From positions 1 to 64,000 of IMG/VR virus record IMGVR_UViG_3300042934_000398: 64,000 bases of DNA; one strand, given 5' to 3'. Position 1 is the first letter of the stretch; every line of letters begins with the position of its first letter. Origin of the DNA: a virus. Both the position numbers and the translations under genes were made by a program. The notes below the pieces were generated by a model. The model ran no database searches. It had not been told where the DNA came from and worked only from the letters and a program-made list of their open reading frames with translations. This document shows positions 12,796-46,258 of this stretch, piece after piece.

Positions 12796-12907
12796 ACAGT
12801 CGATAAAATTAAGAATTGAATCGGTTTAGTGATATTAGGCTGTAGACGTGCAAACCGTCAATAAACCACTAACAGTAATAAAAATAATATTATATGGAGG
12901 AATAAGC

Positions 12908-13651
12908 ATGGCAAGTATAGAATTTATTACAAAGCGTATTCAAGGTAAACAAAAAGAGATAGAGAAGTTAAACAAAAAGCTTGAAAGAATTCAAAAAGCA
13001 AAACAATCTAATTGGCAAGTAAATCCTTATTACTATAGCGAATATGATTTAAACAGCACAGAAAAGGAATTGAACTATTGTATTAAACAGCTTGACGAAT
13101 TACAAAATGATTTACAAACAGCAAACGAAAAAGCAAACAGCCGTAATGTATTAGCAATAACACAATTTTTGGATGCATGGCTACAACGTAATATTGAATT
13201 TTACACAGCAGAAAAAGAAAAGTATAACATTGCTTTACAAGATTATTATCAGCACGATAGAGATTATTGTAATTGGTTTAATTCAAAAAGACACGACACG
13301 ACAAAAGAAGAAAGAAACGAAATCGAAAAGAATCACAAAGAGTATAGAAAGACATTCCAAACGTCATGGAGACATATAACACAATTTGACCACGGCGAAA
13401 AAGAATGGCACGAAACAATGATATCAGATTTAAAGCAAGAATATAACCGTAAATATGATTATATTATCGAAAAGACAAACGAAATAGTCGGAACTATTAC
13501 CGATGCAAGTTATCTAACAGTTGACACAAACGACAATCTAAACGGCTACATTATAGGCACTAGAGGGAAAGCAAGTGTTAATACAATAGGTGCAGGCGGT
13601 TACAATATACAATGCTATCATTTTAGAACTTTAATTCATGAGATAAAATAA
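12908..13651 (+). CDS. Coiled-coil phage protein
   Basis: GGAGG SD; C-terminal TIGAGGYNIQCYHFR motif. Confidence 0.7.
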   Translation: MASIEFITKRIQGKQKEIEKLNKKLERIQKAKQSNWQVNPYYYSEYDLNSTEKELNYCIKQLDELQNDLQTANEKANSRNVLAITQFLDAWLQRNIEFYTAEKEKYNIALQDYYQHDRDYCNWFNSKRHDTTKEERNEIEKNHKEYRKTFQTSWRHITQFDHGEKEWHETMISDLKQEYNRKYDYIIEKTNEIVGTITDASYLTVDTNDNLNGYIIGTRGKASVNTIGAGGYNIQCYHFRTLIHEIK

Positions 13652-13655
13652 TCAT

Positions 13656-13720
13656 GCAGAGGACTACCGCTTACATAGGGTAGTAATGCACTAGGCAATG
13701 CCTAACCGTTCCAAGTCGGT
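13656..13720 (+). ncRNA. Twister ribozyme, circularly permuted
   Basis: P1 CTACC/GGTAG, U^AA site, P2 TGC/GCA, P3 TAGGC/GCCTA, P4 ACCG-TTCCAAGT-CGGT, pseudoknots GGA/TCC and AC/GT. Confidence 0.7.
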
Positions 13721-13760
13721 AAATAAGCATAATATTAAAAAAAATGGAGGTTATAACAGT

Positions 13761-14096
13761 ATGATAATGGTAAACAATGCAGAATTGGAAACGATTGACG
13801 AAATGGCTCAAACACTTTTTGATTTATATTTGGATATAGCAGAAGATCAGCAAGTTAATATATTTGTAACGGATGAAACAGGAGACATTAATTCTAATTT
13901 ATTTATAACAAAGAAAGAAATATTGACACATGAAATAATTATACTTGGGAATGAAATATGTGCAGGTAGTCTTCATATGTTTTCACTTGACGAAGATGAA
14001 AGCAATTATATTACGGTTGAAGGAATAAAGTCTGTTTTAGATGGTTATGGATATTTAAACAAAGTTACTTATTATACACTTGATGATTTATTTTAA
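13761..14096 (+). CDS. Hypothetical acidic protein
   Basis: GGAGG SD before ATG at 13761. Confidence 0.65.
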   Translation: MIMVNNAELETIDEMAQTLFDLYLDIAEDQQVNIFVTDETGDINSNLFITKKEILTHEIIILGNEICAGSLHMFSLDEDESNYITVEGIKSVLDGYGYLNKVTYYTLDDLF

Positions 14097-14143
14097 ATCA
14101 CTTCAATAGGATAACTTATTAACTACAAAACTACAAATAAATG

Positions 14144-14172
14144 TTGACAAATAACTTTATATGTAGTAATAT
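14144..14172 (+). promoter_or_regulatory. Sigma-A promoter
   Basis: TTGACA-17-TAATAT. Confidence 0.6.
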
Positions 14173-14223
14173 AATAGTAGAGATAAACAGAACAGTTAAA
14201 CAGCATTAAAGGAGGTTCTCACA

Positions 14224-14361
14224 TTGGCAGATAAAGCAATAAACATTAAGATTAACGAGCGATTATATAAACAAATCAAAATTAAAGTAGCAACGGAAGA
14301 CTTGACAATTAAAGATTATATTATCAAATTAGTTGAGAAAGATTTAAAAGAAAGTAAATAA
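14224..14361 (+). CDS. Ribbon-helix-helix DNA-binding protein
   Basis: AAGGAGG SD, TTG start; AINIKINERLYKQIKIKVATEDLTIKDYIIKLVEKDL. Confidence 0.7.
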   Translation: MADKAINIKINERLYKQIKIKVATEDLTIKDYIIKLVEKDLKESK

Positions 14362-14386
14362 CAATCAAAAATAGGAGGGCTTAACA

Positions 14387-14752
14387 ATGAATAGAAATTA
14401 TACAACAAACTTAGATCTAAATTACAAGAAACAGCAGCAAGTAATAAAAGAAATATGTAACGAATTAAATTTAGTAGTGTTCTATCCTGATTATCACGCC
14501 GATAAGAAAGATAATAACACAGTAATGATATATACACATGAATCAAACGAGTATAACAATAAACTTCCAAAAGACGCAAACAACGATCAATACAAAGATT
14601 ATGTATGTTTTTTAGAAAATACCGATTTAAATGGTATGTTTAGCTTGTCATATATGAATCATGGCAAAATTGATTTACGAGGATATAACACAGAAAAGGA
14701 AAAGATAAAAGATTTCATATCACAGAAACTAGAGGAATACAATAATAAATAG
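14387..14752 (+). CDS. Hypothetical protein
   Basis: AGGAGG SD. Confidence 0.7.
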   Translation: MNRNYTTNLDLNYKKQQQVIKEICNELNLVVFYPDYHADKKDNNTVMIYTHESNEYNNKLPKDANNDQYKDYVCFLENTDLNGMFSLSYMNHGKIDLRGYNTEKEKIKDFISQKLEEYNNK

Positions 14753-14850
14753 TTTGGTATTTATGGTAGGGTATCGGCTCAAATAATCGGTATCACTCCG
14801 TAAGCATTGAAACTGTTAATGATAGTATTAATTATATAGGAGGTCTTAAC

Positions 14851-15048
14851 ATGAATTTAAAAGAAGCAAAGAAAGCATTTGAAGATAATAAAATGGTACA
14901 ACACAAGGAAGACAAGAATATTTGTAATTATATCAGTTGTTTTGATGACGAAGAGACTGGAGTATACTTAAAACATTCTCACACATTTATACCACTAGAA
15001 AAACTTCAATTATTCAATGTACATGATTATGCTAAATCATTATATTAA
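14851..15048 (+). CDS. Hypothetical protein
   Basis: AGGAGG SD. Confidence 0.65.
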   Translation: MNLKEAKKAFEDNKMVQHKEDKNICNYISCFDDEETGVYLKHSHTFIPLEKLQLFNVHDYAKSLY

Positions 15049-15052
15049 GAAC

Positions 15053-15101
15053 AAATAATAATAGACAAACTATTGACATTTAACTAGTAATATAGTAAAC
15101 T
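15053..15101 (+). promoter_or_regulatory. Operator motif plus sigma-A promoter
   Basis: AAATAATAATAGACA at 15053-15067, TTGACA at 15073, TAAACT at 15096. Confidence 0.65.
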
Positions 15102-15127
15102 ATTAAGTGTAAGGAGGTATTAAATAC

Positions 15128-15298
15128 ATGACAAACGCAACAGTTAAACAGCAACGTAAATCAGAAATCGGAATTAGTTTTAAAGTGAACAATGATTTTT
15201 ATAAAAAGATTAAAATACAAGCCACAGAAGAAGAAAAGACGATAAAAGATTTTATCATTGAATTAATTGAACAGAAAACAGGAGTTAAAAACAAATAA
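15128..15298 (+). CDS. Ribbon-helix-helix protein, paralog of 14224..14361
   Basis: GISFKVNNDFYKKIKIQATEEEKTIKDFIIELIE; AAGGAGG SD. Confidence 0.7.
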   Translation: MTNATVKQQRKSEIGISFKVNNDFYKKIKIQATEEEKTIKDFIIELIEQKTGVKNK

Positions 15299-15327
15299 TA
15301 ATAATAATCATGTAGGAGGATTTTAAA

Positions 15328-16017: not shown

Positions 16018-16128
16018 TTTTAATATTTACTATGCACATTATAAAGATAATAATACACGTTATAGTGTGCATGAATAAGTATTAAATAGTAACTATAAAC
16101 AATCAATTATAAAATGGAGGAATTAAGA

Positions 16129-16632
16129 ATGGAAAATAATTATAATTATGATTTTGTAATCGTGGAAATGGCAAGCATTAAAGTTTATGATTTTTTAATC
16201 AATGGTGAATCAGTAGCAGAAGCGGAAGCAAGAGGAAATAAATATTATCAAGATGAACTAAAACTTGTAACAAGTCACTTAGAAAATTATGGTGGTGAGT
16301 ATTGGGAAAATCAAGTAAAGGCAATTACTAAAAAGGTTGAATCCGGTTGTAAGCTAATGACTTATGAACAATTCAAAGAAGCAGAAAGAAAACATTTACT
16401 TGATGGAGAACTAACAGAAGTTACAGCGGATCAATTTGAAGATTCTTTAAACGTGTTACCTCCTATTTGTTGGACTACACACAATAATGTTGAAATGTTT
16501 TGTATGTCTGAAATGTATACAGGAAGTTATACTTCACAATATGCACATGATAAAAGAACAGGAAAATATTACACAAAACTAGTTGATTGTAAAGACAGAA
16601 GTACATGGATATGTGAACTATTAACAGTATAG
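16129..16632 (+). CDS. DUF1419-like protein
   Basis: C-terminal FEDSLNVLPPICW...FCMSEMYTG motif. Confidence 0.6.
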   Translation: MENNYNYDFVIVEMASIKVYDFLINGESVAEAEARGNKYYQDELKLVTSHLENYGGEYWENQVKAITKKVESGCKLMTYEQFKEAERKHLLDGELTEVTADQFEDSLNVLPPICWTTHNNVEMFCMSEMYTGSYTSQYAHDKRTGKYYTKLVDCKDRSTWICELLTV

Positions 16633-16650
16633 AAAGAGGTAAACAAAAAT

Positions 16651-17082: not shown

Positions 17083-17157
17083 CACTTCAAATTGTAATTT
17101 TATAGGCTATTTATTCCATAATGTAGTATAATAAAATCAAAAACGGAGGGTTTTAAA

Positions 17158-18308: not shown

Positions 18309-18478
18309 CGTTAAATACAAATAATAATACACATGTTTCACGTGAAACATATTAATGGAGGAAATAATTATGAACGATAATATATCTTTAACAGAAGAAC
18401 AGAAAGAATTTAATAAACAGGAAGCTAGGTCAAAATTAATCAATATTATATTGGAAAAAATAATGGAGGAAAAATTAA

Positions 18479-19262: not shown

Positions 19263-19691
19263 ATGAAATATGGAGATATAGTGAAATATAAAGGTCAACT
19301 AGGAGAACTTGTTACAGATGATAAGAAAAACTTTTTGTTCCATCCTGTAAAATTTGGAAATTATTATTACAATCAGTTAGACATTGTTACAGAGAATGAC
19401 ATTGAAGTTGCTAATTTTGATGAACACATAAGTTATATAGAGCAGGAATTTGTATGGGGCGAAGTAATCAAAACGCATTGTATTGGTGAATATCAAATAA
19501 TGGAATTTAAACCAGAACACAAAGAAGATGCAATATCATATCATGGATATATTAATTTTGAAGATACAAACACAACTCATTGTTCTATAGAAAGTGCTTT
19601 AATATCATTAATAGCAAGAAATAAATTAGAAGTAAATGAAGCAAGATATGCGGAGTTATTTATTAACAAAATGCTTAATGGCAATCTGTAA
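19263..19691 (+). CDS. Hypothetical protein
   Basis: AGGAGG SD; flanked by palindromes. Confidence 0.7.
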   Translation: MKYGDIVKYKGQLGELVTDDKKNFLFHPVKFGNYYYNQLDIVTENDIEVANFDEHISYIEQEFVWGEVIKTHCIGEYQIMEFKPEHKEDAISYHGYINFEDTNTTHCSIESALISLIARNKLEVNEARYAELFINKMLNGNL

Positions 19692-19730: not shown

Positions 19731-20108
19731 ATGAATAAAAATTTAAAACTAAGAGATTACTTAAGTAAAAATAATTTGAATATCGATGGTAGAAATATTC
19801 CTTATCAATTAGTTACGGCTACTGATTATTTATATGCTAAAAACGAAAATATAACAGAAGATGAAAGAGATAATTTTGTAGAAGAGAATAACGAGTTATA
19901 TAAACGAATAAATCAAGTTATGGCACTAAAGCAAGCTTGTGTATTATTTAGAAATACAAGTTATAGTTGTGGGAGTTTATCTGACGATTTATTTGATTTG
20001 AAACTAGAATTAATAAGAGAGTTGAAAGAAAAATATAATTATGATTTTGATGAAAAACTGGTTGAAAGTTATCCAAGTGAAGAAGAGTATAATAAAAAGA
20101 CTAGGTAA
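19731..20108 (+). CDS. Hypothetical protein
   Basis: AGGAGG SD; flanked by palindromes. Confidence 0.7.
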   Translation: MNKNLKLRDYLSKNNLNIDGRNIPYQLVTATDYLYAKNENITEDERDNFVEENNELYKRINQVMALKQACVLFRNTSYSCGSLSDDLFDLKLELIRELKEKYNYDFDEKLVESYPSEEEYNKKTR

Positions 20109-20158
20109 TAAGCACAACAATTGAACACTTTATTGGGTTTTTGAAAGGAGAAATAATT

Positions 20159-20626
20159 ATGTCAGTAAAATTTGCAAAGTATTATAATGTAACAAATTTA
20201 GTAAAGAAAATGATTAAAGACGGTAAATTAGATTGTTATTCAGATTGTATGGATAATCTGTCAGGAGTATATATTTGCAGTGATACAAAAGATTTTTGGG
20301 TTGCGAGAATTAATAAAGATCTGAATGATGAGTATGACGAAGAAGAAGTAGTGTACCTAATTGAAAGAAATAAGATTGATAACTGGGATGTAATTGAAAA
20401 AGTTGGTGAGACATTCAATAAAGAAACTCCTAGACAGTATACAAAAATCGATATGCATAATTTTATCAATGAGACATCTGAAAGAATGTTATTTGAAGCT
20501 GTATTAATGATAGACGATTTTAATGGACTAGAAAATTGGGATAATTATCAATGTGATAGTTTGGAAGATGCAATTGATAACCTTGCTGATATTTATGGAA
20601 TTGAAGAGTTTAAAGTTGCAATGTAA
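20159..20626 (+). CDS. Hypothetical acidic protein
   Basis: AAAGGAG SD. Confidence 0.7.
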   Translation: MSVKFAKYYNVTNLVKKMIKDGKLDCYSDCMDNLSGVYICSDTKDFWVARINKDLNDEYDEEEVVYLIERNKIDNWDVIEKVGETFNKETPRQYTKIDMHNFINETSERMLFEAVLMIDDFNGLENWDNYQCDSLEDAIDNLADIYGIEEFKVAM

Positions 20627-21139: not shown

Positions 21140-21793
21140 ATGAATTTAAAAGTAGGAGAAGTAGCAAAGAGATTAGGGGTATCAGTTAAGACATTGCAAA
21201 GATGGGATAACGAAGGGGTATTTGTTGCTCTAAGAAATCCTAAAAATCAAAGATATTATACGGATGAACAAATTGAACAATTTGCAAGCAAGGCTAAAGA
21301 AACACAAGAAAAATATAAGTTGCTATTTATAGAGGCTGTATATGACGAGTATGAAGATTATGATAAGGTAGATAAAATACTTGAAGAGAATGTAAACAAA
21401 GGATTATTCTATATGTCAGGTGAACACATCGTGTACAAAGTTGAAAATGCGAAAGAATTAGCTTTATTATTTAATGTAGAATTGGAAATTGTAAAAGAAA
21501 GGTCTATCACGATATCCGAATATATTAGATATAATGATGGTGGTGAATATGTAGATATACTTGATATGCAAATTGGAATTGATAAATGTATTGATTACTT
21601 GGTTGAAAATCTTGATATTTACATCAGCGACATTAACAAAGCAATTGAAAACCTCTCAAACGATGATGATTCATTTGATGATGAGATTTCAAAATTAATT
21701 GACAATATGTTACCGATAGTAGCAAAGAAAAAAATTGATTCAGCAATTAAACAGTTGAAAGAAATGTCAAAAGGAAAATTTATTTGGAAGTAA
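21140..21793 (+). CDS. MerR-type HTH protein (excisionase/IS607-like N-terminus)
   Basis: VGEVAKRLGVSVKTLQRWDNEG...RNPKNQRYYT. Confidence 0.75.
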   Translation: MNLKVGEVAKRLGVSVKTLQRWDNEGVFVALRNPKNQRYYTDEQIEQFASKAKETQEKYKLLFIEAVYDEYEDYDKVDKILEENVNKGLFYMSGEHIVYKVENAKELALLFNVELEIVKERSITISEYIRYNDGGEYVDILDMQIGIDKCIDYLVENLDIYISDINKAIENLSNDDDSFDDEISKLIDNMLPIVAKKKIDSAIKQLKEMSKGKFIWK

Positions 21794-22717: not shown

Positions 22718-22761
22718 AAAGCGAATAGATTACTTATTTGGCTTAGAGAGGGTGATTAAAG

Positions 22762-22905: not shown

Positions 22906-22935
22906 AATAAAATGATGTATTGAAAGGAAAATAGT

Positions 22936-23569: not shown

Positions 23570-24541
23570 ATGGGATTAGCACAGGTTAAACAGGAAGAAA
23601 AAATAGAGTGTAGTATAATTATGTTTCCACAAGATAATATAATAGAAAAAAAAGAGGAAGATACTGTAAAAGAAATTAAATTGAGACTAGATGGCACACC
23701 TAAGATTATCGTTAGGAATAAGAAAAAAGGTCAGAAGTCTGAAGTATATCCATTCAGGACACAAGAAGACATTAAAAACATGATGAATTATTTTATCGAC
23801 AATAAATCATGGCACAGCTATTTATTATTTGTCTTAGGTATCAATATGGCTAGGCGAGTGGGTGATACCTTAAACCTCACATGGAAACATTTTTATTTTC
23901 CAAATGGCAGAATGAGAAGTGATGTACTTGAATTTGAGGAAGAAAAAACAGATAAATTTGCTAATCCTAGAATTAATAATGCTTGCCGTGAAGCTATTAA
24001 ACTATTTATAGAGAAAACTGAAGTAGAACCTATGGAGAATTACGAGAAACCTGTATTTATGCAACTATCTGGGACTGGTAAAGGAAAGGTGTTTTCAAAG
24101 TCTGGTTATTGGGTTAATTTGAAAAAGGCTGCTAAAGCTTGTAATATAGGATACAACATAGCAGCACATAGCACTAGAAAAACTTATGGATATTGGAGTA
24201 GAAAACTCCACCCAAACGATACAGATTCCATGCAAATATTACAGTCAACTTATAATCATTCGTCTGAATCTGTTACTAATAAATATATCGGATTAACAAA
24301 GGAAAAAATAGATCAGTATTACGACGATATGGGTGATTTCTTTACAGAGTATATTATGGGTGACAAACAGTTTCAAAATACAGAGAACAAACCTATTGTA
24401 TCACTTGATAGTAATGATTTAAGGGACATAATAACAATGGCTTATCAGGAAGGCAGAAAGAACGCTAGTAATAATGATATAGATAGCAATTTAGATATTG
24501 TTAATAGTATTATGGATTTAGCAGAAGAGTTGATGAAATAA
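23570..24541 (+). CDS. Tyrosine recombinase, catalytic-domain type
   Basis: GINMARRVGD (R), EEKT (K), HSTRK (HxxR), NHSS (H), NKYIG (Y); own TAGACA-17-TATAAT promoter. Confidence 0.9.
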   Translation: MGLAQVKQEEKIECSIIMFPQDNIIEKKEEDTVKEIKLRLDGTPKIIVRNKKKGQKSEVYPFRTQEDIKNMMNYFIDNKSWHSYLLFVLGINMARRVGDTLNLTWKHFYFPNGRMRSDVLEFEEEKTDKFANPRINNACREAIKLFIEKTEVEPMENYEKPVFMQLSGTGKGKVFSKSGYWVNLKKAAKACNIGYNIAAHSTRKTYGYWSRKLHPNDTDSMQILQSTYNHSSESVTNKYIGLTKEKIDQYYDDMGDFFTEYIMGDKQFQNTENKPIVSLDSNDLRDIITMAYQEGRKNASNNDIDSNLDIVNSIMDLAEELMK

Positions 24542-25082: not shown

Positions 25083-25128
25083 AAACACAACCAAAAACGA
25101 TTTTGATTTGAAAATAGGAGGAAATAAA

Positions 25129-28016: not shown

Positions 28017-28409
28017 ATGATTATTAAAAGAGGAGATATTTTTTATATTGATATTAAAAACGATGAATTAGATCCACACAAACAGATAGGTTGTAGACCT
28101 TGTATTATCATATCTAATGATATGAATAATAAACACAACAGCAGAGTACAGTACATACCATTGACCAGTAGGGACAAAAAGTATATACCTACTCATGTAA
28201 TTTTGAAAACTACAGAAGGACTTCAGAAAGAATCAATTGCTTTATGCGAATGTATTGACGGAATTAGTAAGGCGTATATCAAAGAAAAGATTGGTCATGT
28301 ATCTGAAGAAGATATGATAAAAATAGAGAATGCTATGGATATTCAGTTAAATCCAAGTAGAACAGTAAGATTTGTTGTAAGAAATCCTAGACAATATGCT
28401 CATGCTTAA
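28017..28409 (+). CDS. mazF: PemK/MazF-family endoribonuclease
   Basis: IKRGDIFY, QIGCRPCIIISND, IPLTS, ALCECI, IGHV motifs. Confidence 0.88.
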   Translation: MIIKRGDIFYIDIKNDELDPHKQIGCRPCIIISNDMNNKHNSRVQYIPLTSRDKKYIPTHVILKTTEGLQKESIALCECIDGISKAYIKEKIGHVSEEDMIKIENAMDIQLNPSRTVRFVVRNPRQYAHA

Positions 28410-28513
28410 AAATAGATAATATTAAACATAATTAAAATATAAATATTGACAAATGGATGATTATGTATTATATTATTGTTATATGTATGAATCATAGGGA
28501 GGATGAGTATTAT

Positions 28514-29779
28514 ATGAAAGACGATAAAGCATTAAGAGAAGTGTTGCAAACGAAAATTGCCCAAATTAAAGCAGAATATCCTAAAATAGTAATAAAAGAA
28601 ATTTCACAGACTATGGCGAACACTTATAATGTGAAACATGGATTAAGTATCGACATTATAAACGGCATATATCCTATAGAAAACTTAACTTATGATATGT
28701 TGTATAAATTAATGAAATCCATTCACACACTTACAGCATCAAGATTTATGACACTAGATTCTTCTGATTTATATGCACCATCATATTTTACAGATATTGA
28801 AATTGAAGAATTTGAAAAACCTGTTCCGGAAGAAGAAGATAATTTTGATATTGTTATTAAAGATTGGCACGAAACAACAATGGATCAATATAGAGTAATT
28901 CATATTTTTACCGATATAAATGAGAAAATTCGCTGGAGAAACTATAATAAACTTCGTTTTAATCCAGAAACTCAACGAGATTTAATTGAAATAAAATCAC
29001 AAAAAGGTACGATAGTAAAAAAACTTGACATCAATAGAAAAGCCGTGAATAATATGAAGGAACTTATGATTAAGGGATTATATTTCCCAGTTCCTTGTAT
29101 TATTAATATTAATCCAGATAAATGCGAAGAGCCAGTAATTATAAGAGGCAATACTTTAACTATACCAAAAGAAAATCATATTGATTTAATTGAGGGATTT
29201 CATAACTATATTGCTGAATGTGAAGTTAAAGATGAAAATCCTGATTGGAATTTTCCGTGTGAATTGAAATTAATGTTTTTAGATACTGATAGATGTAATG
29301 ACTTTATTAATCAAATGGATCAGAAGACTCATTTTAGAGAACCACAAAAAGCTAGAATAGACACACAGTCTCAAGAAAATTTTATAATTGACAGATTAAA
29401 TTCAAATAGTAAATATCATCTAGTAGGTACTATAGATAAAGATATGAGAGTCTATTTATATAAAATTATAAAATATATTTTTGAGGTTCAGGATAGAAAA
29501 CAAGCTGTAGATATTTTTGAACATTTGAAAGATAATTTAAATTATATAATCGAAAATACAGATCATTATAATATTGCATTTAACAAAACTGAATTTTTTG
29601 TATATTTGATGATGATAAAAAGTTCAATAGATTCTAATATAGATTTTGAAAGTATATATAGAAAAATCGATATTAATAGTATCTTTGAAGAATTTAAGAT
29701 TAGAAATGCACCAAGCGCATCGTATTATGCTAAATTAAAATCTATAATTAACGAGGTGATTAAAAATGCCAATGTATAA
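28514..29779 (+). CDS. DndB/ParB-like (DGQHR-type) protein, SPbeta YopQ-like position
   Basis: FNPETQRDL and LIEGFHN motifs; overlaps the downstream integrase-like gene. Confidence 0.55.
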   Translation: MKDDKALREVLQTKIAQIKAEYPKIVIKEISQTMANTYNVKHGLSIDIINGIYPIENLTYDMLYKLMKSIHTLTASRFMTLDSSDLYAPSYFTDIEIEEFEKPVPEEEDNFDIVIKDWHETTMDQYRVIHIFTDINEKIRWRNYNKLRFNPETQRDLIEIKSQKGTIVKKLDINRKAVNNMKELMIKGLYFPVPCIININPDKCEEPVIIRGNTLTIPKENHIDLIEGFHNYIAECEVKDENPDWNFPCELKLMFLDTDRCNDFINQMDQKTHFREPQKARIDTQSQENFIIDRLNSNSKYHLVGTIDKDMRVYLYKIIKYIFEVQDRKQAVDIFEHLKDNLNYIIENTDHYNIAFNKTEFFVYLMMIKSSIDSNIDFESIYRKIDINSIFEEFKIRNAPSASYYAKLKSIINEVIKNANV

Positions 29780-30764
29780 CGAATTTCAAAAAAATAGATA
29801 TTTAGAAAGCTCAGACTTTAAATTTGAAGAAAGTGTAAAAGATGTAGTTAAAAGATTATTTGAAGGTGCTGCAAAAATTGAATTACAAGAGAATTGTGAT
29901 TTATCATTATTTAATCGTTCTCAAGTAATAAACCTATTGAAAGGTTATAATTCAAAATCTAAGAATTATTTAAGGTTAATAGTGAATCAATTTTCATATT
30001 ATTATACTTGGTGTTTATCTGAGGGATTAGTGGATAATACTAATATCATAAATCAATACGATTATAACTTAACTAAACCAATTATAGATGATATAGTAAC
30101 TTTGGATATTATAAGAGATAAATATTTTTTAGTTGATTATTTTTTAGATAATGTTTATAAAAATGAAAAAATTGATATAACTGATAAATACATTTTTTAC
30201 GCATTGTTCAGCGGAATTTGTGGTATTGAATTTAGCGACTTAATAAATTTAAGATTAGATGATATTAATAAAAAAAGAAAGGTTGTTAATTTAATTTCCG
30301 GTAAAATACTTAAAGTAGATGACATTTTTATAGAACTTGCAGAGGAAGCAGATAAATCACTTGTATATTGCCCAGATGGAATTGAAAGTGTTAATAGATC
30401 AAAAGATCCAGATAGATATAAATATGACGAAAGTTGTTACATTCTTAAACCTTGTGGTAATCGTTCGTTAAATAGACCAATAACAAAAATGATTTTAGGT
30501 ACAAGATTAAGACAACTACAAAAACATCTTAATAATAGATTTATTAATGGTGGTTCTATTTATTTTAATGGAATGGTTAATTTTATTAAAAATAAATTTG
30601 AATCAGAAGGTATAACTTTACGTCAAGCAGTATTTGAAAAAAGGAATAAGTTATCATACGTGTATAATGATAAACTTCAAGAATATATCAATGAATTTGG
30701 TTCAAATATGATAGATAGAGCATTTAGAGCTAAAATTGTTGATATTATCGAATTATATGAGTAG
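29766..30764 (+). CDS. Tyrosine-recombinase-fold protein, probably a catalytically dead lysogeny repressor (YopR/MrpR-like)
   Basis: MYNEFQKNRYL, SAM-like N-terminus, ALFSGICGIEFSDLINLRLDDI; no HxxR motif. Confidence 0.6.
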   Translation: MPMYNEFQKNRYLESSDFKFEESVKDVVKRLFEGAAKIELQENCDLSLFNRSQVINLLKGYNSKSKNYLRLIVNQFSYYYTWCLSEGLVDNTNIINQYDYNLTKPIIDDIVTLDIIRDKYFLVDYFLDNVYKNEKIDITDKYIFYALFSGICGIEFSDLINLRLDDINKKRKVVNLISGKILKVDDIFIELAEEADKSLVYCPDGIESVNRSKDPDRYKYDESCYILKPCGNRSLNRPITKMILGTRLRQLQKHLNNRFINGGSIYFNGMVNFIKNKFESEGITLRQAVFEKRNKLSYVYNDKLQEYINEFGSNMIDRAFRAKIVDIIELYE

Positions 30765-33720: not shown

Positions 33721-33766
33721 CATAACCAATTATATGATTGATGTTCTTTTTGAAAGGAGAATTTAG

Positions 33767-34201
33767 ATGGTATTAAAAGAAGAAAAGAGAGATTTATTTA
33801 ATGTTCCAGAAGATTACTATTTTGCTCATTGCATTAGTGCTGATTTTGGTATGGGTAAAGGAATCGTAGTTGAGTTTAACAAACGATATAACATGAAAAA
33901 TGAATTGATAAAAAAGTACAAGATTAATAATTGGAATGGAAATGGATATTGTTTGTCTAAGGATAGAGTATTCAATTTGATTACAAAAGAAAAGTACTGG
34001 AATAAACCTACATATGAAACATTAAGACAATCTTTGGAATCTATGAAACAAGAAATGTTATTCTTTGATGGTATGGTAACTAAGCTTGCAATTCCTAAAA
34101 TTGGCTGTGGATTAGATAGATTACAGTGGGATAAAGTAAAAGAAATTATTAAAGATGTATTTAATGATATGGAAGTAGAAATATTGGTTTGTTATTTATA
34201 A
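33767..34201 (+). CDS. Macrodomain ADP-ribose glycohydrolase (TARG1/DarG-like)
   Basis: AHCISADFGMGKGI, NLITK, PKIGCGLDRLQW. Confidence 0.85.
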   Translation: MVLKEEKRDLFNVPEDYYFAHCISADFGMGKGIVVEFNKRYNMKNELIKKYKINNWNGNGYCLSKDRVFNLITKEKYWNKPTYETLRQSLESMKQEMLFFDGMVTKLAIPKIGCGLDRLQWDKVKEIIKDVFNDMEVEILVCYL

Positions 34202-34252
34202 AATAGCGAATAAAATGTGGCTTCAATTTGAAGTTAGAAAGGAAAATAAATA

Positions 34253-34639
34253 ATGTCAGAAGTTAAATTAAATGAACATGGTGTAAACGCTAATATTAAA
34301 GCACACATTCTACCAGAAGAGAAGATGAGAAAACTTGGATTCACAGACTTTTGTAATGAAAGATGGTATTTTTGTAAGATGATTAAGTTTCCAAATGAGA
34401 AGAGATACAGAAATTTTGAAATTTCTTTTGGTGTTTCAATTACAAAGGATAATCATGATGATCTTAGAATTGATGTATTGGATAATGACTTTTGCCAACC
34501 TTTTGATTATCAATATATGTTAGAGCGTAATGATAGACATGAAATTTCTTTAATCGTTCGAGAACAAGTGGAAGAGTGGATGAAATATTTACAAAAAGAA
34601 GGTGTACTAAGCGGTCACATATATGGTGAATACATTTAA
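34253..34639 (+). CDS. Hypothetical protein
   Basis: SD; IDVLDNDFCQPFDYQ. Confidence 0.7.
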   Translation: MSEVKLNEHGVNANIKAHILPEEKMRKLGFTDFCNERWYFCKMIKFPNEKRYRNFEISFGVSITKDNHDDLRIDVLDNDFCQPFDYQYMLERNDRHEISLIVREQVEEWMKYLQKEGVLSGHIYGEYI

Positions 34640-34642
34640 TAC

Positions 34643-35111: not shown

Positions 35112-35330
35112 GTGGAAAGTATTTTAACAGATGAACACAAAGAATTAATTAATAAAAAGATTAAGAAGGCAATTAATGATTTAGATTTTACTGAAATTTT
35201 AGCTGAATATATAGAAAAAGAATTAGATACTATTTATGATGGTGCAGGTATTAAAGAAAATCTTGAAAGTATGGTAATGGAAGTAATTAGGCAAAATTTA
35301 GTAAAAAGTGGTTTATTGAAAGATAAATAA
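35112..35330 (+). CDS. Hypothetical protein
   Basis: AAGGAG SD. Confidence 0.6.
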   Translation: MESILTDEHKELINKKIKKAINDLDFTEILAEYIEKELDTIYDGAGIKENLESMVMEVIRQNLVKSGLLKDK

Positions 35331-35372
35331 GCACAACAAATGGTTGTTTGGTTATAAAGAGAGGAGAATAAT

Positions 35373-36170
35373 ATGTTTTTTAAAAAGAAAGAAGATACAA
35401 CACATAATGAATATGAAATTAATACAAATGAAAATAACACATTAGAAGGAAATGAAGAAAAAACTGACAAAACAGAAGAAGAATGGATTTGGGTAGAAGG
35501 TTATAAAGGTACAGATAAAGACATGAAGTGCCGTGATATGCAATATGAGTTAAATAAGACGTATGAACACGAAGGTAAAATTGAATTATGTGAATCAGGG
35601 TTTCACTTCTGTAAAGAATTAAGTAATGTTTTTGGATACTATTCATTAGATAATGGTAATAGATTTTTCAAGGTAAAATGTCTAGTAATTAAAGATAAAT
35701 GGGAGTCGGGCGACAATAAATTCACTGCCAAAGAAATTATTTTTACAGAAGAATTAGGATATAAAGAATTAGAAAAATTTATTATTAAAAAATATTCATT
35801 TGTACATAACAAAAATGAATGGAATGAACTAAGTGAAATTGGTATTAAGAAATTTTACAGAAAGTATTTTATGAGTATTATGTCAGATGCTGGTTATGGA
35901 GAAACATTTTCTAATATCTTATATGATGATATAAATAAGAAAATCGAAGAAATAGAGTCTGAAAATAAGAGAAGATACATAGAGGCAAATTCTTATAGTA
36001 ACATATATTATCCAAACCAATATATTTCAAAGCCTGTAAGAAATCCATTTTATATTTATGAGCCATCATATGATTATACTAGATTCGACGAATTGATTAA
36101 TAAAGTAAAAGCATTTCAAGAAGAGGGATTATCAAAAGATATGTCGGTTTATTTACTACTGAAAAGGTAA
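35373..36170 (+). CDS. Phage protein (DUF7666-like N-terminal domain)
   Basis: GYKGTDKDMKCR...IELCESGFHFC. Confidence 0.65.
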   Translation: MFFKKKEDTTHNEYEINTNENNTLEGNEEKTDKTEEEWIWVEGYKGTDKDMKCRDMQYELNKTYEHEGKIELCESGFHFCKELSNVFGYYSLDNGNRFFKVKCLVIKDKWESGDNKFTAKEIIFTEELGYKELEKFIIKKYSFVHNKNEWNELSEIGIKKFYRKYFMSIMSDAGYGETFSNILYDDINKKIEEIESENKRRYIEANSYSNIYYPNQYISKPVRNPFYIYEPSYDYTRFDELINKVKAFQEEGLSKDMSVYLLLKR

Positions 36171-37950: not shown

Positions 37951-37995
37951 TACTATAAGATCATTCTTTGAATCGGTTTTGAGAAAGGGGTAAAT

Positions 37996-38515: not shown

Positions 38516-38780
38516 ACACAATAATAATTTAAATAAAGTAGACTTATAAGGAGGATTTATGAGTAGTGATTTTAAAGATAGACTTTTAAAACGATCAGAT
38601 AATAATTGTGAAAATGTTTTAGATAACCATGATGTAGATGACTATTATGAGGACGAAAATAACTACAATGATGATGATTGGAACGAATACGTAAATGACT
38701 ATTATGAGAATTATGTAGCAAAATATTCGGATTAATTACGATGAAACTATACTTTGATAGGAAAATGAAAGGAGAAATAA

Positions 38781-39176
38781 ATGAAATTTGAAAGTAAATT
38801 TGAGTTAGGACAGCAAGTATGGGGTACAGTTATTAATGATAAAAGTACATATGAACCAGTGGAATGTGATTTATGTGATAGCACAGGGTTTGTCATCGTA
38901 AAAGGGAAAGATGTAGAATACATTTGCCCTCAATGTTTTGGAGACAAACAATATAAGAAATTAGGTAAAGAAATGACAATCTGCAAAACTGGTAAAATAG
39001 GCAAAATATGTGTAGAACAGTATGATAGTCAATATAAAAATACAAGTGGAACAAAATATATGATCGACAAAACAGGAGTAGGAAGTGGAACTGTGTGGCG
39101 TGAAGAAGAATTATTTGCATCCGAAGAAGAAGCTCAAAGGGCTTGCGATGAATTTAATAAAAACAATTTACTATAA
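38781..39176 (+). CDS. Hypothetical protein with two CxxC motifs
   Basis: AAAGGAG SD; flanked by palindromes. Confidence 0.7.
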   Translation: MKFESKFELGQQVWGTVINDKSTYEPVECDLCDSTGFVIVKGKDVEYICPQCFGDKQYKKLGKEMTICKTGKIGKICVEQYDSQYKNTSGTKYMIDKTGVGSGTVWREEELFASEEEAQRACDEFNKNNLL

Positions 39177-39217
39177 AGGACGAATTTTATCGTGAAATAG
39201 AAGGGATGTGACAGATA

Positions 39218-40405
39218 ATATATAAAACAAAAATAATACCAGTTAAGTGTAGCAAAACTGATTATCATTATTTATTGAGACTGAACAAATTGTCAGCCGA
39301 AGTTTGGAATTATTGCGTGAAGATTGATAAAGAATATTATACAAATAATAAAAAATATATGGATATGAGAACTATACAAACAGCAGTTAAGTGTTATAAC
39401 AATCTTCACGCAAAAGGAATTTACTATGTTTATAGAAAGTATATGTTTGCAAGAGATTCAATGTTTAGGTCAATTAAAGCAAAGCATGATACAAGCAATA
39501 AAGTAAAATTACCTTATAAGAAAAAGAAGTATTTTAATACAGGTTGGGATTATCAAAGTATTAAATATGATTTTGAGAAAGGATTGATAAAATTATCAAG
39601 ACCAATATCGCATGATGAAAATGGTAAGAAAATAAACAATCCACCTGTCAAATGTTATACAAAAAACATTCCACAAGATATTAAAGAGATTGAATTGGTA
39701 TATCGTAATGGATTATATTTAGTAATTAAATATAAGGAAGAAGATATACAACAATTAATTCAATCCAATAATTCAGCGGCTATTGATCTTGGAGAAATAC
39801 ATAGCATTACATCTATAGATAATAATGGACATGCAATAATTATTACTGGAAGAAAATTAAGAAGTATCAAGAGGTTAAGAGATAAAGAACAAGGTAAATT
39901 AAGAAGTAAAATGTCGAAATGTAAAAAGCATAGTAAACAATATAAGACATATAGAAATGCATTATGGAATTTAAAGTATAAGACAGAAAGGCAGATATTT
40001 GACTGTGTTCATAAGATATCAAAATTATATCTCGATTACTGCTTAGAGAATAATATTTCTAAAGTTTACTATGGTGATTTAGACAACTGCACTCGAAATT
40101 CATCTGAAAAGATTGGTAAAATGGTTGGTCAGAAATTAAACGAATGGAACTATGGAGAACTCACTTTACAGCTACGAAACAAATTGGAACGATATGGAAT
40201 AGAAATGATAAAAGTAAGTGAAGCATATAGTTCTCAGACCTGTCCTCATTGTGGAAAGCGTCACAAGCCAAATTCTCGTAACTATGATTATAGGTGTGGT
40301 TATCATCAGCACAGAGATTTGGTAGGAGCAATAAACATTCTTAATTTCAATGAAGACATTAAACAAGAATATCATACAAGTTTTAAGTATCTACGGATAG
40401 AGTAA
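39218..40405 (+). CDS. tnpB: TnpB (IS200/IS605 OrfB) RNA-guided nuclease homolog, probable ATA start
   Basis: AIDLG (RuvC-I), YYGDL, EAYSSQTCPHCG, HRDLVGAINI; no tnpA nearby. Confidence 0.85.
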   Translation: MYKTKIIPVKCSKTDYHYLLRLNKLSAEVWNYCVKIDKEYYTNNKKYMDMRTIQTAVKCYNNLHAKGIYYVYRKYMFARDSMFRSIKAKHDTSNKVKLPYKKKKYFNTGWDYQSIKYDFEKGLIKLSRPISHDENGKKINNPPVKCYTKNIPQDIKEIELVYRNGLYLVIKYKEEDIQQLIQSNNSAAIDLGEIHSITSIDNNGHAIIITGRKLRSIKRLRDKEQGKLRSKMSKCKKHSKQYKTYRNALWNLKYKTERQIFDCVHKISKLYLDYCLENNISKVYYGDLDNCTRNSSEKIGKMVGQKLNEWNYGELTLQLRNKLERYGIEMIKVSEAYSSQTCPHCGKRHKPNSRNYDYRCGYHQHRDLVGAINILNFNEDIKQEYHTSFKYLRIE

Positions 40406-40486
40406 TCTAAAGTAGTAGATGGCTAGGTTGGAGTCCTAAGTAGTCCGTTGTAATTTGACGAGAAATTTTCAGTAATGAAAAAGCCA
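40381..40486 (+). ncRNA. Putative omegaRNA/right-end scaffold of TnpB
   Basis: Hairpins TATCTAC/GTAGATG, TAGA/TCTA and TAGG/CCTA overlap and follow the stop codon. Confidence 0.4.
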
Positions 40487-40533
40487 ACCAAATATAATTT
40501 TGATTTGATTAGAAGAAATGAGGTGATTTTACG

Positions 40534-43091: not shown

Positions 43092-43567
43092 AAAACTTAT
43101 TTGCTTTTGGAAAGGAAGATATATGACCATTAAAGATTTATATGTTTATGCTCAAGAACGAGGTATTGAAAACTGCGAAGTAGAAATTCAATATGCTGAT
43201 GGCGGTGGATGTTATCATGGTACAAGAGATTTAAATGAGCACGATATAGAAGTAAAAGAAGAAAGTTATGGTAAGATAGTTGTTTTGTAAAAATAGAATA
43301 AATTCGATATTCGATTAAGAAAGGAGAGTTATTATAATGGAAAATGATAAATGTGTATTCTTTAGTAAAGATGATTTCAGTGAAGAATCATGGGAAATAC
43401 TTTGTTCAGAGTTTGAAGTAGATTCAGAACAATCAAGTTTTTGTGGACATATTATTGTAGAGGAAGATGATTCATTTGACTTGGATGATGACGATGATGA
43501 AGAGTAATAAATAATATTAGACAACAAAACAAGTGATTGATGTTCTTATTGGAAAGGAGGAGTTGCC

Positions 43568-43810
43568 ATGATGTCGTCATCTTTTACAGCAGGTGGTAGG
43601 TTATTTTGCTCTTATTGCGGCAAAGAAATGCTTAATTGTAAGTGTAATTGTGAAAAAGCTAAAAAGGATATCGAAATTCAAAACGATATATTTATAAGTC
43701 AAGAAAATTTAAGAATTTTAATTTCAGAGAGACTTTCGGAAAAAGATATTAGAAAAATACAGATTGAAGAAGATATTAAAGCATTAAATAATGAACTTAA
43801 ATCATTATAA
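43568..43810 (+). CDS. Hypothetical protein
   Basis: AAGGAGG SD; CSYC. Confidence 0.6.
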   Translation: MMSSSFTAGGRLFCSYCGKEMLNCKCNCEKAKKDIEIQNDIFISQENLRILISERLSEKDIRKIQIEEDIKALNNELKSL

Positions 43811-43848
43811 ATTGAGCCTTTTATCGACTTTGGAAAGGAGTAATTAAA

Positions 43849-44115
43849 ATGTGTACTGAGAAACAAAATGGTTATCAACCAACAAATAAAGTATCAGGAT
43901 GTGTACCACCTTCAAATGGTTCAGTTTTTGATGTTAATTCAGACGATAAGACATGTGACAATTGTATCAAATCTGACGTTTGTAATATAAAAGAAGATAT
44001 AATCAAATCGACTGAAGATATCTTTAAAATTGTTAATAGTATAGAGGATAAAATAAAAGTTTCTATTTCTTGTAATAAGTTTGCAGCAAAAAATAAATAT
44101 ACAGGAATAAGATAA
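43849..44115 (+). CDS. Hypothetical protein
   Basis: AAAGGAG SD. Confidence 0.6.
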   Translation: MCTEKQNGYQPTNKVSGCVPPSNGSVFDVNSDDKTCDNCIKSDVCNIKEDIIKSTEDIFKIVNSIEDKIKVSISCNKFAAKNKYTGIR

Positions 44116-44141
44116 AGTTTACTAATTTTCAAATTAAATAC

Positions 44142-44189
44142 AAATAATATCAAACAAGTATTGACAATATATAAATAATAATATACAAT
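44142..44189 (+). promoter_or_regulatory. Sigma-A promoter with two operator motifs
   Basis: Motif at 44142; TTGACA at 44161; second motif at 44173-44187 overlapping the -10 TACAAT. Confidence 0.65.
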
Positions 44190-44223
44190 AAACAAGTAGC
44201 AAGCGATTGGTTAGTTTTGGAAG

Positions 44224-44505
44224 GTGGTGAGAGATATAACAAGGAGCAGATTACCTACATATAAACAAATTGAAAAGATGATAGACGAAGAGATAATTAA
44301 GAATCCAATTTCAGATACAAATGGTATTAATCCTGTAGTATTTGAACCAAACAAAAAATATACTCACTTAATTAAACTTGATTATGAGAAGAAATTGGAT
44401 AGCATTGAAATTATTAGTTCAGAAATAAGACGAGCAGTATTTGAAGAATATTTTAATGCATGTATCAAAGTAATAGGAGAAATGAATCAGTTAATAAAAC
44501 ATTAA
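44224..44505 (+). CDS. Hypothetical protein
   Basis: ORF after the promoter. Confidence 0.55.
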   Translation: MVRDITRSRLPTYKQIEKMIDEEIIKNPISDTNGINPVVFEPNKKYTHLIKLDYEKKLDSIEIISSEIRRAVFEEYFNACIKVIGEMNQLIKH

Positions 44506-44550
44506 ATATAAATAATAATAAACATATAAAAGAAAAGGAGAATACATATT

Positions 44551-44811
44551 ATGATTATTACAGTAACAAATCCATTCAAATCAATGTATATTGAAGATGC
44601 AGAAGGTTCTTTAAGAATTGATGAAGGTATGAAGATTAAATTCGTAGCAGAAACAGGTGAAGTAATTAGTGGTACATTAACTAAGATTTCTGGCAAAGGT
44701 GAGAAAACAAAATTACAGATTATTCCTTATGGAGCACAGAAAGAAGAAATTTGGGCATTGACTGTTATGCAAGAGTCATCACTAGGTATAGATGAGGATG
44801 TTTGTGATTGA
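44551..44811 (+). CDS. Hypothetical protein
   Basis: AAGGAG SD. Confidence 0.65.
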   Translation: MIITVTNPFKSMYIEDAEGSLRIDEGMKIKFVAETGEVISGTLTKISGKGEKTKLQIIPYGAQKEEIWALTVMQESSLGIDEDVCD

Positions 44812-46223
44812 GAAAAACGTTCTTAGATGATTTACCTGTAAATTATAAGGGAATAGATTGGACTCATTGTTTGGGATATGAAATTAATTTTATATATGAC
44901 GATATAATAGGAATAATTAAAATTATTAAGTATAACAAAGATAAGCAAACTTTAATAGTAAAATACAAAGATAAAATAAAACTAATAAAATGTAATAGTT
45001 TAAAAAACGCTTATTTAGCAAATGTTATTGGAAAACAATCTAAATGGTTTAAGCTTGAAATTAGTACAAAAATCAAAGATAACAAGCGTAATTTAACTAT
45101 ATTAGATCAAGAATATCGCCGAGATAGTAAAGAACGGAAATGGAAATGGTATAGATATAAGTGCAATGTATGTGGTTGGGATAATGGATGGATTGAAGAA
45201 AATCGTTTATTATCAGGAAAAGGATGTTCATGTTGCGATGGCAAGACTGTTGTTGAAGGAATTAATGACATCCCAACTACTGCTCCATGGATGATTCCAT
45301 ATTTCAAATGTGGTTATGATGAAGCGAAGTTATATACACGTCGATCACAGCAAAGAATATATCCTATTTGTCCTGATTGTGGAAGAGTAAAACAAAATAG
45401 TATACAAATATATTCGATTTATGAAAATCATTCAATAGGATGCATCTGTAGAGATGGTATATCATATCCAAATAAATTAATTTATTATGTTATAGAACAA
45501 TGCAAAAATCAATTTTATTCTTATGTAAGAGAATATAGTCCAGAATGGGCGATGGGTAAATTTTATGATTTATACTTAAAAACATTAGATAATAAAGAAT
45601 ATATTATTGAAATGGATGGTGCTATAGGTCATGGTAATAAAATATTACCTAATTCAGAGATTACATTACAAGAAAGCATAGAAATAGATAATTTAAAAAA
45701 TAGCTTAGCCAATGAACATAAAATTGATATAATCAGAGTTGATTGTATACAAAGTGATTTAGAATACATAAAAAATAATATTTTAAATAGTAGAATTAAT
45801 AATATCCTAGATTTATCAAGTGTTAATTGGAAACAATGTGATGAAATGGCAACAAAAAGTTTGGTTAAAATAGTATGTAATATTTACAGTAAAAACACAT
45901 TATTATCGACGGCAGATATTTCAGATATGGTAGGTATTCATCAAAGCACTGTGAGAGTATATTTGATTAAAGGTACAAAATTTGGTTGGTGCAAATATAA
46001 TCCTGAAGAAGTCACAAATAAAAATCACATAAAAATTTGGGATAATAATCGTAAAAAAGTTATATGCACAACAACAAATAAAAAATTTAATTCAATAATA
46101 GAAGCGTCAAAATATTATGGATTAAAATCTTCATCTGGCATAGGTGAATGTTGTAATAAAAAAATAAAGTCAGCTGGAAAATTGCCTGACGGAACAAAGC
46201 TACAATGGGAATATATTAGATAA
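44808..46223 (+). CDS. Putative homing endonuclease (Zn fingers, PD-(D/E)xK-like core, IENR1/NUMOD-like tail)
   Basis: CNVC/CSCC/CPDC, YDLY...IIEMDG, KKVICTTTNKKFNSIIEASKYY. Confidence 0.7.
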   Translation: MRKTFLDDLPVNYKGIDWTHCLGYEINFIYDDIIGIIKIIKYNKDKQTLIVKYKDKIKLIKCNSLKNAYLANVIGKQSKWFKLEISTKIKDNKRNLTILDQEYRRDSKERKWKWYRYKCNVCGWDNGWIEENRLLSGKGCSCCDGKTVVEGINDIPTTAPWMIPYFKCGYDEAKLYTRRSQQRIYPICPDCGRVKQNSIQIYSIYENHSIGCICRDGISYPNKLIYYVIEQCKNQFYSYVREYSPEWAMGKFYDLYLKTLDNKEYIIEMDGAIGHGNKILPNSEITLQESIEIDNLKNSLANEHKIDIIRVDCIQSDLEYIKNNILNSRINNILDLSSVNWKQCDEMATKSLVKIVCNIYSKNTLLSTADISDMVGIHQSTVRVYLIKGTKFGWCKYNPEEVTNKNHIKIWDNNRKKVICTTTNKKFNSIIEASKYYGLKSSSGIGECCNKKIKSAGKLPDGTKLQWEYIR

Positions 46224-46258
46224 GCAGACCAATGATGCTTTTTATTGGGATTTAGGAG

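Follow-up and report, generated by a model that had tools for sequence, protein, structure and literature searches.

Gene-by-gene mosaicism bounded by short conserved linkers in the accessory gene array of a large SPbeta/c-st-like phage

The stretch of DNA analysed here (the window, 64,000 nt) comprises the first 64 kb of the IMG/VR viral contig IMGVR_UViG_3300042934_000398 (G000; 99,443 bp, 28% GC with values of 26–32%, estimated completeness 61%). From about 11 kb on, small genes on the + strand predominate and are nearly all co-oriented. When the DNA 5' of all + strand starts was right-aligned, consecutive co-oriented small genes were found to be separated by gaps of 30–50 nt, termed linkers or spacers in the following, which are the junction sites of a preliminary description of this region. 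Comparison with related phages revealed a gene-level mosaic in which the ends of homologous blocks cluster in these linkers; chimeric linkers occur, and left and right linker halves are shared between distant sites almost independently of each other. Gene coordinates, and with them all statistics on gene borders, are based on our own crude gene model; positions beyond 64,000 are coordinates on the full contig.

Dozens of + strand genes follow each other in the same orientation, and the gaps between them, judged by their layout, hold a Shine-Dalgarno sequence and no promoter. The gap begins with the stop codon, followed by a short A-rich stretch, a T-rich stretch (often TTTGAT or TTTTAT), 5 to 12 bases, the Shine-Dalgarno sequence and ATG. 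The Shine-Dalgarno sequence is strong and extended (GAAAGGAG). A family consensus is recognizable on either side of the linker, namely a TAAGCAC-like trailer and a TTGAT-GTNCTTWTT leader preceding GAAAGGAG, and the information per position across the family is low. The gaps also carry a weak AT-rich inverted repeat, ATMAA-N8-TTKAT.

Close relatives of the phage in the collections searched were limited to two, G001 (IMGVR_UViG_3300042923_000401, 38.5 kb, found via the gene at 35373–36170) and G007 (IMGVR_UViG_3300042922_000432, 32 kb, found via the gene at 46268–46708). In both, genes whose products are 93–100% identical in amino acid sequence to those of the window are interleaved with unrelated ones. 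About half of the genes of G001 match the window at this level, while the others are without homologue in the contig; at the DNA level, the match is a chain of blocks of 76–99.8% identity with unrelated DNA between them. In three more distant relatives (G002, G003 and G004), too little of the DNA matches the window to map breakpoints, and among the statistics they enter only that on the inverted repeat.

Breakpoints were taken from the ends of blastn blocks and from ungapped in-register inspection, in both cases against G001 and G007. A gene start or stop lies within 21 nt of 18 of the 26 homology block ends, although such zones make up only 13.8% of the sequence (P = 1.7e-10). Block ends were located at the stop codon or 1–3 bases past it (22906, 34640, 37951 and 38738), 9–25 nt within the upstream open reading frame (ORF; 27289 and 69840), in the left arm or loop of the inverted repeat (46234 and 65833), immediately after its right arm (27682, 46726, 66206 and 69879), at the Shine-Dalgarno sequence (24559, 25122, 28502 and 33385) and inside ORFs (21288, 23679 and 44769). 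Just two to three of the approximately 22 linker breakpoints fall into the palindrome centre. The preliminary description had regarded the spacers as mosaics arising from crossovers within the spacer, every cassette being bounded by two half-sites. The spacers are indeed recombinational mosaics, and parts of them move apart from the neighbouring genes, but a defined crossover in the central spacer was not found. Half-sites at the cassette ends are not borne out either: block ends are spread over the stop codon, the arms, the right-arm edge and the Shine-Dalgarno sequence, and a replaced segment does not have matching boundaries on its two sides.

The expectation that right halves travel with the downstream gene and left halves with the upstream gene held in part. 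As expected from the ribosome-binding site in it, the right part of a linker (its final 20 nt or so at least) usually goes with the downstream gene. Left parts were retained by the upstream gene in just about half of the cases. Some events left both arms with the upstream gene; in others, the spacer accompanied the downstream gene in its entirety. The gene at 46268–46708 is followed by three different downstream genes in G000, G001 and G007, and the three sequences diverge within 5 nt, at the right arm.

Several linkers are conserved while both neighbouring genes are not. Such spacer-only islands of 30–50 nt with unrelated flanking genes are found at 38738–38787 (92% identity), 40476–40518 and 63927–63956. 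The segment 69840–69879 is conserved together with the last ~25 nt of the upstream ORF, whereas the rest of this gene and the downstream sequence differ. The spacer at 19334–19383 of G001 is a chimera, of which the first 27 nt are of the 38738 type and the last 20 nt are identical to the window leader at 22919; the switch point is the Shine-Dalgarno core common to both spacer types. Non-orthologous spacers of G000 and G001 have further words of 14–18 nt in common. Together with the chimera, these words are direct evidence for a reassortment of linker pieces and for at least one exchange through a short stretch of common sequence.

Three further differences between the two genomes were observed. 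At 39173–40518, the window has a TnpB gene (39275–40405) plus a 3' tail between two linkers, where G001 has unrelated genes and retains nothing but the 43-nt linker 40476–40518. Relative to window positions 34601–34640, G001 (15009–15242) harbors an extra 55-amino-acid ORF behind the gene corresponding to 34253–34639. On either side of this insert lies a copy of the terminal ~40 nt of that gene, one of the two being diverged, and the duplicated flanks are the footprint of an insertion by homologous exchange. The gene of a MerR-type helix-turn-helix protein (21140–21793) is itself mosaic: identity to the G001 gene product is 77% over the N-terminal 47 residues, the remainder is unrelated, and the break at 21288 lies inside the ORF, at a domain border. 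A metagenome scan with the gene at 20159–20626 yielded no relative, and the homologues of the gene at 33767–34201 (46–53% identity) have unrelated upstream DNA and were uninformative.

Spacers are also linked to each other within the genome by recurring words. The spacers concerned, with other elements of the linkers, are the following.

20107–20158, + strand: spacer of site 20116; the left 14-mer (20107–20120, with a tandem stop inside) is identical to that at 35326, and the right 9-mer (20129–20137) to those at 46241 and contig position 64460
35326–35372, + strand: spacer of site 35335; only the left 14-mer is shared with 20107 (longest common substring 14), the right part being unrelated (longest common substring 4)
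46224–46267, + strand: spacer of site 46228; homology to G001 (99.8%) begins at 46234, just past the left arm, and the upstream gene differs between the two phages
33725–33766, + strand: spacer of site 33725; the right-half 14-mer (33735–33748) is identical to that at 43534, and the downstream genes are unrelated
43524–43567, + strand: spacer of site 43524 with the right-half 14-mer (43534–43547), of which a 10-nt version recurs at contig position 76333
25083–25128, + strand: spacer of site 25090; both arms are identical to 40485–40508 and the loop differs; in the comparison with G001, the upstream gene keeps the entire spacer, and homology stops at the Shine-Dalgarno sequence (25122)
40476–40518, + strand: spacer of site 40487, downstream of the TnpB gene; the match to G001 is limited to these 43 nt, with different genes on either side
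12803–12830, + strand: site 12803; the 12-mer 12816–12827 is identical to that at 37968
37951–37995, + strand: spacer of site 37955, behind the RNA ligase gene, with the 12-mer 37968–37979; G001 and more distant relatives are homologous up to 37950/37951, one base past the stop codon
22720–22727 (also 34205–34212), + strand: AGCGAATA, an 8-mer at chance level
14099–14106 (also 17083–17090), + strand: CACTTCAA, an 8-mer at chance level
38738–38787, + strand: spacer-only island (50 nt, 92% identity to G001) between unrelated genes
46708–46726, + strand: strict palindrome directly behind the gene at 46268–46708

All flank words named in the preliminary description are present, each within about 13 nt of where it had been placed. 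Expected numbers were calculated per 64 kb with a first-order Markov model. The longer words, with expectations of 0.001–0.2 per window, far exceed chance. They include TGATTGATGTTCTT at 33735 and 43534 (expected 0.001), AATAAGCACAACAA at 20107 and 35326 (0.002), TTGAATCGGTTT at 12816 and 37968 (0.004), and CAACCAAA at 25088 and 40485, which is followed at equal spacing by TTTTGATTTGA at 25101 and 40498 (0.2 for the 11-mer). The word TTTATTGGG is found at 20129 and 46241 and in a third copy at contig position 64460, each time directly 5' of a Shine-Dalgarno sequence. Two 8-mers do not go beyond chance: AGCGAATA has four copies on the + strand of the window compared to 1.1 expected, and CACTTCAA has three on the + strand and two on the − strand (0.8 expected per strand). 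The left flanks at 22725/34210 (AGCGAATA) and 14102/17086 (CACTTCAA) thus carry no weight as shared halves. In in-register alignments of the matching spacers, identity is confined to non-coding DNA and ends at the ORF borders, and the flanking genes are not paralogues. Scans of IMG/VR with the two 14-mers gave, among the matches listed, only unrelated chance hits, a 14-mer being too short for a collection of this size.

Most words of at least 10 nt shared between spacers are accounted for by the motif AAATAATAATAWACA, an element distinct from the junction words; when it was set aside, five junction-type words of at least 11 nt were left. The sharing of halves was examined in 64 operator-free spacers from G000 and the non-orthologous part of G001, by an alignment-free procedure, since the automatic choice of a palindrome centre is ambiguous in AT-rich DNA. 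Words of at least 11 nt were shared by six pairs of left halves and five pairs of right halves, about six-fold more than in second-order Markov (Markov-2) simulations (0.9 ± 0.9). At a threshold of at least 12 nt, three pairs were observed per half, compared to 0.2 under the same null model. Left and right similarity were almost uncorrelated (Spearman r 0.05, a value reached by 80 of 1000 permutations). The independent sharing of halves that had been described is thus borne out by the near-zero correlation and the enrichment in each half, although the real pairs in the window number only four or five. Site 20116 does have its left part in common with 35335 and its right part with 46228. With that many pairs, plain independence leads to about two sites that belong to both a left and a right pair; the site therefore fits independence and is by itself no evidence for a mechanism.

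The inverted repeat proved to be a genuine, if weak, feature. With five of six positions paired and a loop of 6 nt, it was found in 28 of 62 short spacers compared to 12 in shuffles. The excess is present at loops of 4, 6 and 8 nt and absent at 5 and 7 nt, which is the signature of a fixed centre, and the even-loop excess is repeated in G001, G002, G003 and G004 (five genomes including G000). The 4-nt core with a 6-nt gap has 13 non-coding occurrences, compared to 3–8 at other gap lengths. The strict pattern (NATMAA-N8-TTKATN) is present in the window in 10 copies (4.4 ± 2.2 expected), all of them with a non-coding centre and four with a TAA stop within the left arm. The centre of the repeat lies 26–31 nt 5' of the start codon, and its position is tied more closely to the next start than to the stop. 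Individual sites are approximately 18–20 bp long, AT-rich and degenerate, with arms of A and T and frequent mismatches, and the majority of the sites named in the preliminary description deviate from the strict pattern. Since 21 of the 34 occurrences of the 4-nt core with 6-nt spacing in the contig are located in coding DNA, the motif is too unspecific, and the palindrome too short, AT-rich and degenerate, for a site-specific recombinase.

When the spacers were folded as RNA, the mean minimum free energy (MFE) of −3.4 kcal/mol equalled that of shuffles (mean z 0.0 in G000). Mismatches in the inverted repeat showed no G-U bias and no Rfam family matched the linkers; reading the repeat as an RNA hairpin was rejected on these three grounds. 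No arm was dominant in tallies of perfect 5-bp arms. An expectation-maximization motif search returned a motif of low information in G000 (stop context plus TTTGAT) and only the Shine-Dalgarno sequence in distant loci. The AAATCAAT repeats preceding the MerR-type gene were considered as relatives of the arms, but this link was discarded, as the word is not enriched (25 copies, 17 expected).

The longer, promoter-bearing gaps contain a recurring motif of 13–15 bp, AAATAATAATAWACA, at the following positions.

Window 15051, 18316, 44133, 48797, 52019, 61240 and others; contig 75012, 77456, 79714 and 80148: copies of AAATAATAATAWACA

It is probably the operator of a MrpR/YopR-like repressor and the counterpart of SPBRE, the MrpR/YopR operator of SPbeta, a 15-bp motif found at about ten promoters (Kohm et al. 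2023, PMC10516654). Like SPBRE, the junction palindromes recur between the genes of a phage that encodes a YopR-like repressor. SPBRE was nevertheless rejected as an account of the palindromes, being a 15-bp promoter operator (PMC10516654) for which AAATAATAATAWACA, at promoter-bearing gaps, is the better fit.

The closest named phage is Clostridium phage c-st, with 52% amino acid identity in the YorF homologue. In the window at 28017–30764, genes for PemK/MazF-like, YopQ-like and YopR/MrpR-like proteins are in the same order as CST027–CST030 of Clostridium phage c-st. Further marker genes encode an RNA ligase, TnpB, a DnaB-like helicase, a primase, an intein-bearing Pol III alpha and an NAD ligase. 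By its marker genes, the YorF identity and the shared PemK-YopQ-YopR order, the phage belongs to the large SPbeta/c-st-like type, with a low-GC Firmicute as host. A megablast search of the GenBank phage collection with 20 kb of the sequence gave no match. Genes relevant to the assignment or to recombination are listed below.

28017–28409: PemK/MazF-like toxin
29766–30764: MrpR(YopR)-type protein with core-binding domain (MrpR_N_CB)
48882–49994, + strand: Sak4-like single-strand annealing protein (phrog_124, 4.8e-23)
53148–54317, + strand: PD-(D/E)XK exonuclease, likely partner of the Sak4-like annealing protein
23570–24541, + strand: small tyrosine recombinase encoded within the accessory array, sole candidate for an alternative, site-specific mechanism

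The tyrosine recombinase (323 amino acids, in the middle of the array) matches only the generic PF00589 (47 bits); recombinases of the IntI type have a specific extra domain and are encoded beside an attI site and a common promoter that heads the array. Its position is conserved in G001 and G002, and the proteins of G000 and G001 are just 35% identical. The Pol III alpha gene (54329–58933) contains an intein with a LAGLIDADG homing endonuclease domain at residues ~740–1170. A skipping-rope RNA was identified by Rfam at 2422–2508 on the − strand (66 bits, gathering score 36.7), adjoining a tRNA-Thr (2218–2290), while no Rfam family, twister included, reached its gathering score at 13656–13720. 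A perfect 16-bp palindrome of the parS type, TGTTTCACGTGAAACA, is located at 18334–18349, in a gap that also holds the 15-bp operator motif. Palindromes of this type are sites for ParB proteins of chromosomes and plasmids, and the one found here fits a plasmid-like prophage such as c-st.

Our leaning, given with reserve, is towards general homology-assisted recombination in the conserved linkers, which would shuffle genes one or few at a time and leave chimeric spacers behind. The junction sites are regarded as ordinary intercistronic linkers, each made up of a small set of short conserved pieces (an A-rich trailer containing or following the stop codon, the weak inverted repeat, a T-rich leader and the extended Shine-Dalgarno sequence), within which related phages meeting in one cell may recombine. 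Phage enzymes, namely the Sak4-like annealing protein and the exonuclease, or else host RecA would be the likely agents. Phage annealing proteins promote exchange between short, imperfect homologies, and such exchange is plausible here because the phage encodes a Sak4-like protein of this kind and an exonuclease. The survivors would be recombinants with intact ORFs. Repeated exchanges at the stop codon, the palindrome, the right-arm edge or the Shine-Dalgarno sequence would each swap one or few genes, and the left and right parts of the resulting linkers would have different nearest relatives. Short homology, rather than selection alone, would then guide the exchanges.

Some observations weigh against this preference for homology-assisted exchange. 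G001, one of just two close relatives, covers most of the examined range, and the statistics depend on about 26–35 ends placed by means of crude gene calls. For the majority of exchanges the parental sequences were not seen, so that homology at the crossover was demonstrated for one chimera only. The inverted repeat, with its even-loop excess in five genomes and ten strict copies that are all non-coding, is neither needed nor explained, and five block ends right at its 3' edge hint at some role. The AT-rich palindromes might accordingly be considered as active sites at whose edges a phage protein binds or nicks, stimulating gene-by-gene exchange of cassettes; the array-borne tyrosine recombinase (syntenic in three relatives) or a nuclease would be candidates. 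Compatible with such a role are the five block ends that coincide with the 3' edge of the right arm, as well as the three downstream genes joined within 5 nt behind one gene. We regard it as very unlikely, the small probability being kept in view of these five ends and of a position tied more closely to the next start than to the stop. If true, the palindromes would constitute a promoterless phage-borne cassette system distinct from integrons and from the promoter-early stem-loops (PeSLs) discussed below.

Among the other explanations, illegitimate recombination at random throughout the genome, with subsequent selection for intact genes and without a guiding role of linker pieces, corresponds to the classical model of phage mosaicism in the literature of the Hendrix school. 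The scatter of block ends over the whole linker instead of one point, and the ends inside ORFs (21288, 23679 and 44769), speak for it. It leaves unexplained why identical 12- to 14-mers recur, within and between genomes, in linkers between unrelated genes, and why islands of 30–50 nt with 92–95% identity are present between unrelated genes; moreover, the sole chimera with both parental types visible is joined across a shared Shine-Dalgarno core. It is therefore judged unlikely, though still to be reckoned with. Selection on a common functional motif, such as a translation or mRNA-processing leader or the site of a phage DNA-binding protein, would produce shared words without any exchange. The consensus on both sides of the linker and an inverted repeat enriched in five related genomes, with its centre 26–31 nt 5' of the start codon, would agree with this. 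Exact 14-mers and 50-nt islands, however, surpass a loose consensus of low information per position, RNA folding is no different from shuffles, G-U bias and Rfam matches are lacking, and functional constraint is unable to yield the gene-level mosaic against G001 and G007; this explanation appears quite improbable. Chance matches in AT-rich sequence account for the two 8-mers, and inverted repeats with five of six pairs occur in about 20–25% of shuffled spacers; the IMG/VR scans with 14-mers, which among the matches listed gave unrelated chance hits only, also point this way. For the long words chance is refuted by expectations of 0.001–0.2 per window and by the three pairs per half sharing at least 12 nt (0.2 under the Markov-2 null), and as a general account it is extremely improbable.

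An integron-like mechanism, in which a tyrosine recombinase cuts the 6–8-bp palindrome centre and cassettes carry a half-site at each end, is suggested by the inverted arms with fixed even spacing and by the small tyrosine recombinase gene in the array, with a similar syntenic one in G001 and G002. Homology that begins inside the palindrome at 46234 and 65833, and discontinuities of within-genome shared words near the loop, would also be in accordance with it. It is contradicted by the breakpoints, of which all but two or three of about 22 in linkers avoid the palindrome centre and lie at the stop codon, past the right arm or at the Shine-Dalgarno sequence, and by the mismatch between left and right boundaries of replaced segments. 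The strict motif has only 10 copies where 4.4 are expected, its 4-nt core is mostly coding (21 of 34 in the contig), and most of the sites first named lie outside the strict motif; attC-like boxes and a stable fold are absent. The recombinase alleles of G000 and G001 have diverged to 35% identity, though the linkers are alike. A plasmid-type prophage would presumably need such an enzyme for dimer resolution anyway, and in a c-st-like plasmid prophage with a parS-like site at 18334–18349 this would be the simpler role. We give integron-like exchange hardly any credence, and the tempting reading of the array as a phage integron is unsupported.

Large temperate SPbeta/c-st-type phages of Firmicutes carry tens of kilobases of small accessory genes, the turnover of which is poorly understood. 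The region described here shows gene-by-gene turnover bounded by recognizable linkers, with chimeric linkers as footprints, and offers a concrete, testable model of homology-assisted exchange within linkers, comparable to PeSLs of T4-type phages. It also follows that linker halves are unreliable markers of the ancestry of the adjacent gene. With integrons (attC sites and IntI), the array has in common co-oriented, mostly promoterless small genes, imperfect palindromes between them and a tyrosine recombinase gene nearby. However, attC sites are 55–140 bp long with R and L boxes and fold as single strands, whereas the sites here are ~18–20 bp long and fold no better than shuffles; integrons have one fixed crossover point, whereas the breakpoints here are scattered over the linker, and the palindrome often includes the stop codon itself. 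For lambdoid phages, the modular theory of Susskind and Botstein proposed that short conserved sequences at gene borders guide the homologous exchange of functional modules, and boundary sequences were described for HK620 and its relatives. Lambdoid modules are multigene functional units, in contrast to the gene-by-gene exchange of dozens of small genes with a recognizable common linker architecture in this phage.

The closest parallel are the PeSLs, composite intergenic motifs that extend from the stop codon to the Shine-Dalgarno sequence in the hyperplastic regions of T4-type phages (Arbiol et al. 2010, PMC2839356; Comeau et al. 2014, PMC4122927). When PeSL copies recombine, orphan genes are gained, lost or replaced, and chimeric motifs remain (PMC2839356; PMC4122927). 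Circular excision products (mini-circles) are a further mark of PeSL-type shuffling. Likewise, the linkers form a repeated composite motif, from an AT-rich stop region to the Shine-Dalgarno sequence, which is concentrated in variable arrays of small genes; differences among close relatives are bounded by linkers, and chimeras of left and right parents occur. PeSLs are ~100 nt long, whereas the linkers measure 30–50 nt and are mostly too short to accommodate a promoter; those promoters that carry the 15-bp operator are confined to longer gaps. Judged by their layout of stop codon, inverted repeat, leader and Shine-Dalgarno sequence, no promoter scan having been run, the short linkers lack a strong sigma-70-type early promoter. 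A terminator stem-loop was not found in them either, as their mean MFE is that of shuffles: the inverted repeat is AT-rich and thermodynamically negligible, in contrast to the G/C-rich PeSL terminator. The phage also differs in being temperate, c-st/SPbeta-like and from a Gram-positive host. By analogy, the linkers appear to work like PeSLs but are not members of the PeSL family, since the strong promoter and stable terminator stem-loop that define PeSLs are missing. Judging from the sequence, what seems to be new is a gene-by-gene turnover comparable to that at PeSLs in an SPbeta/c-st-type Firmicute phage, achieved without the PeSL promoter or terminator.

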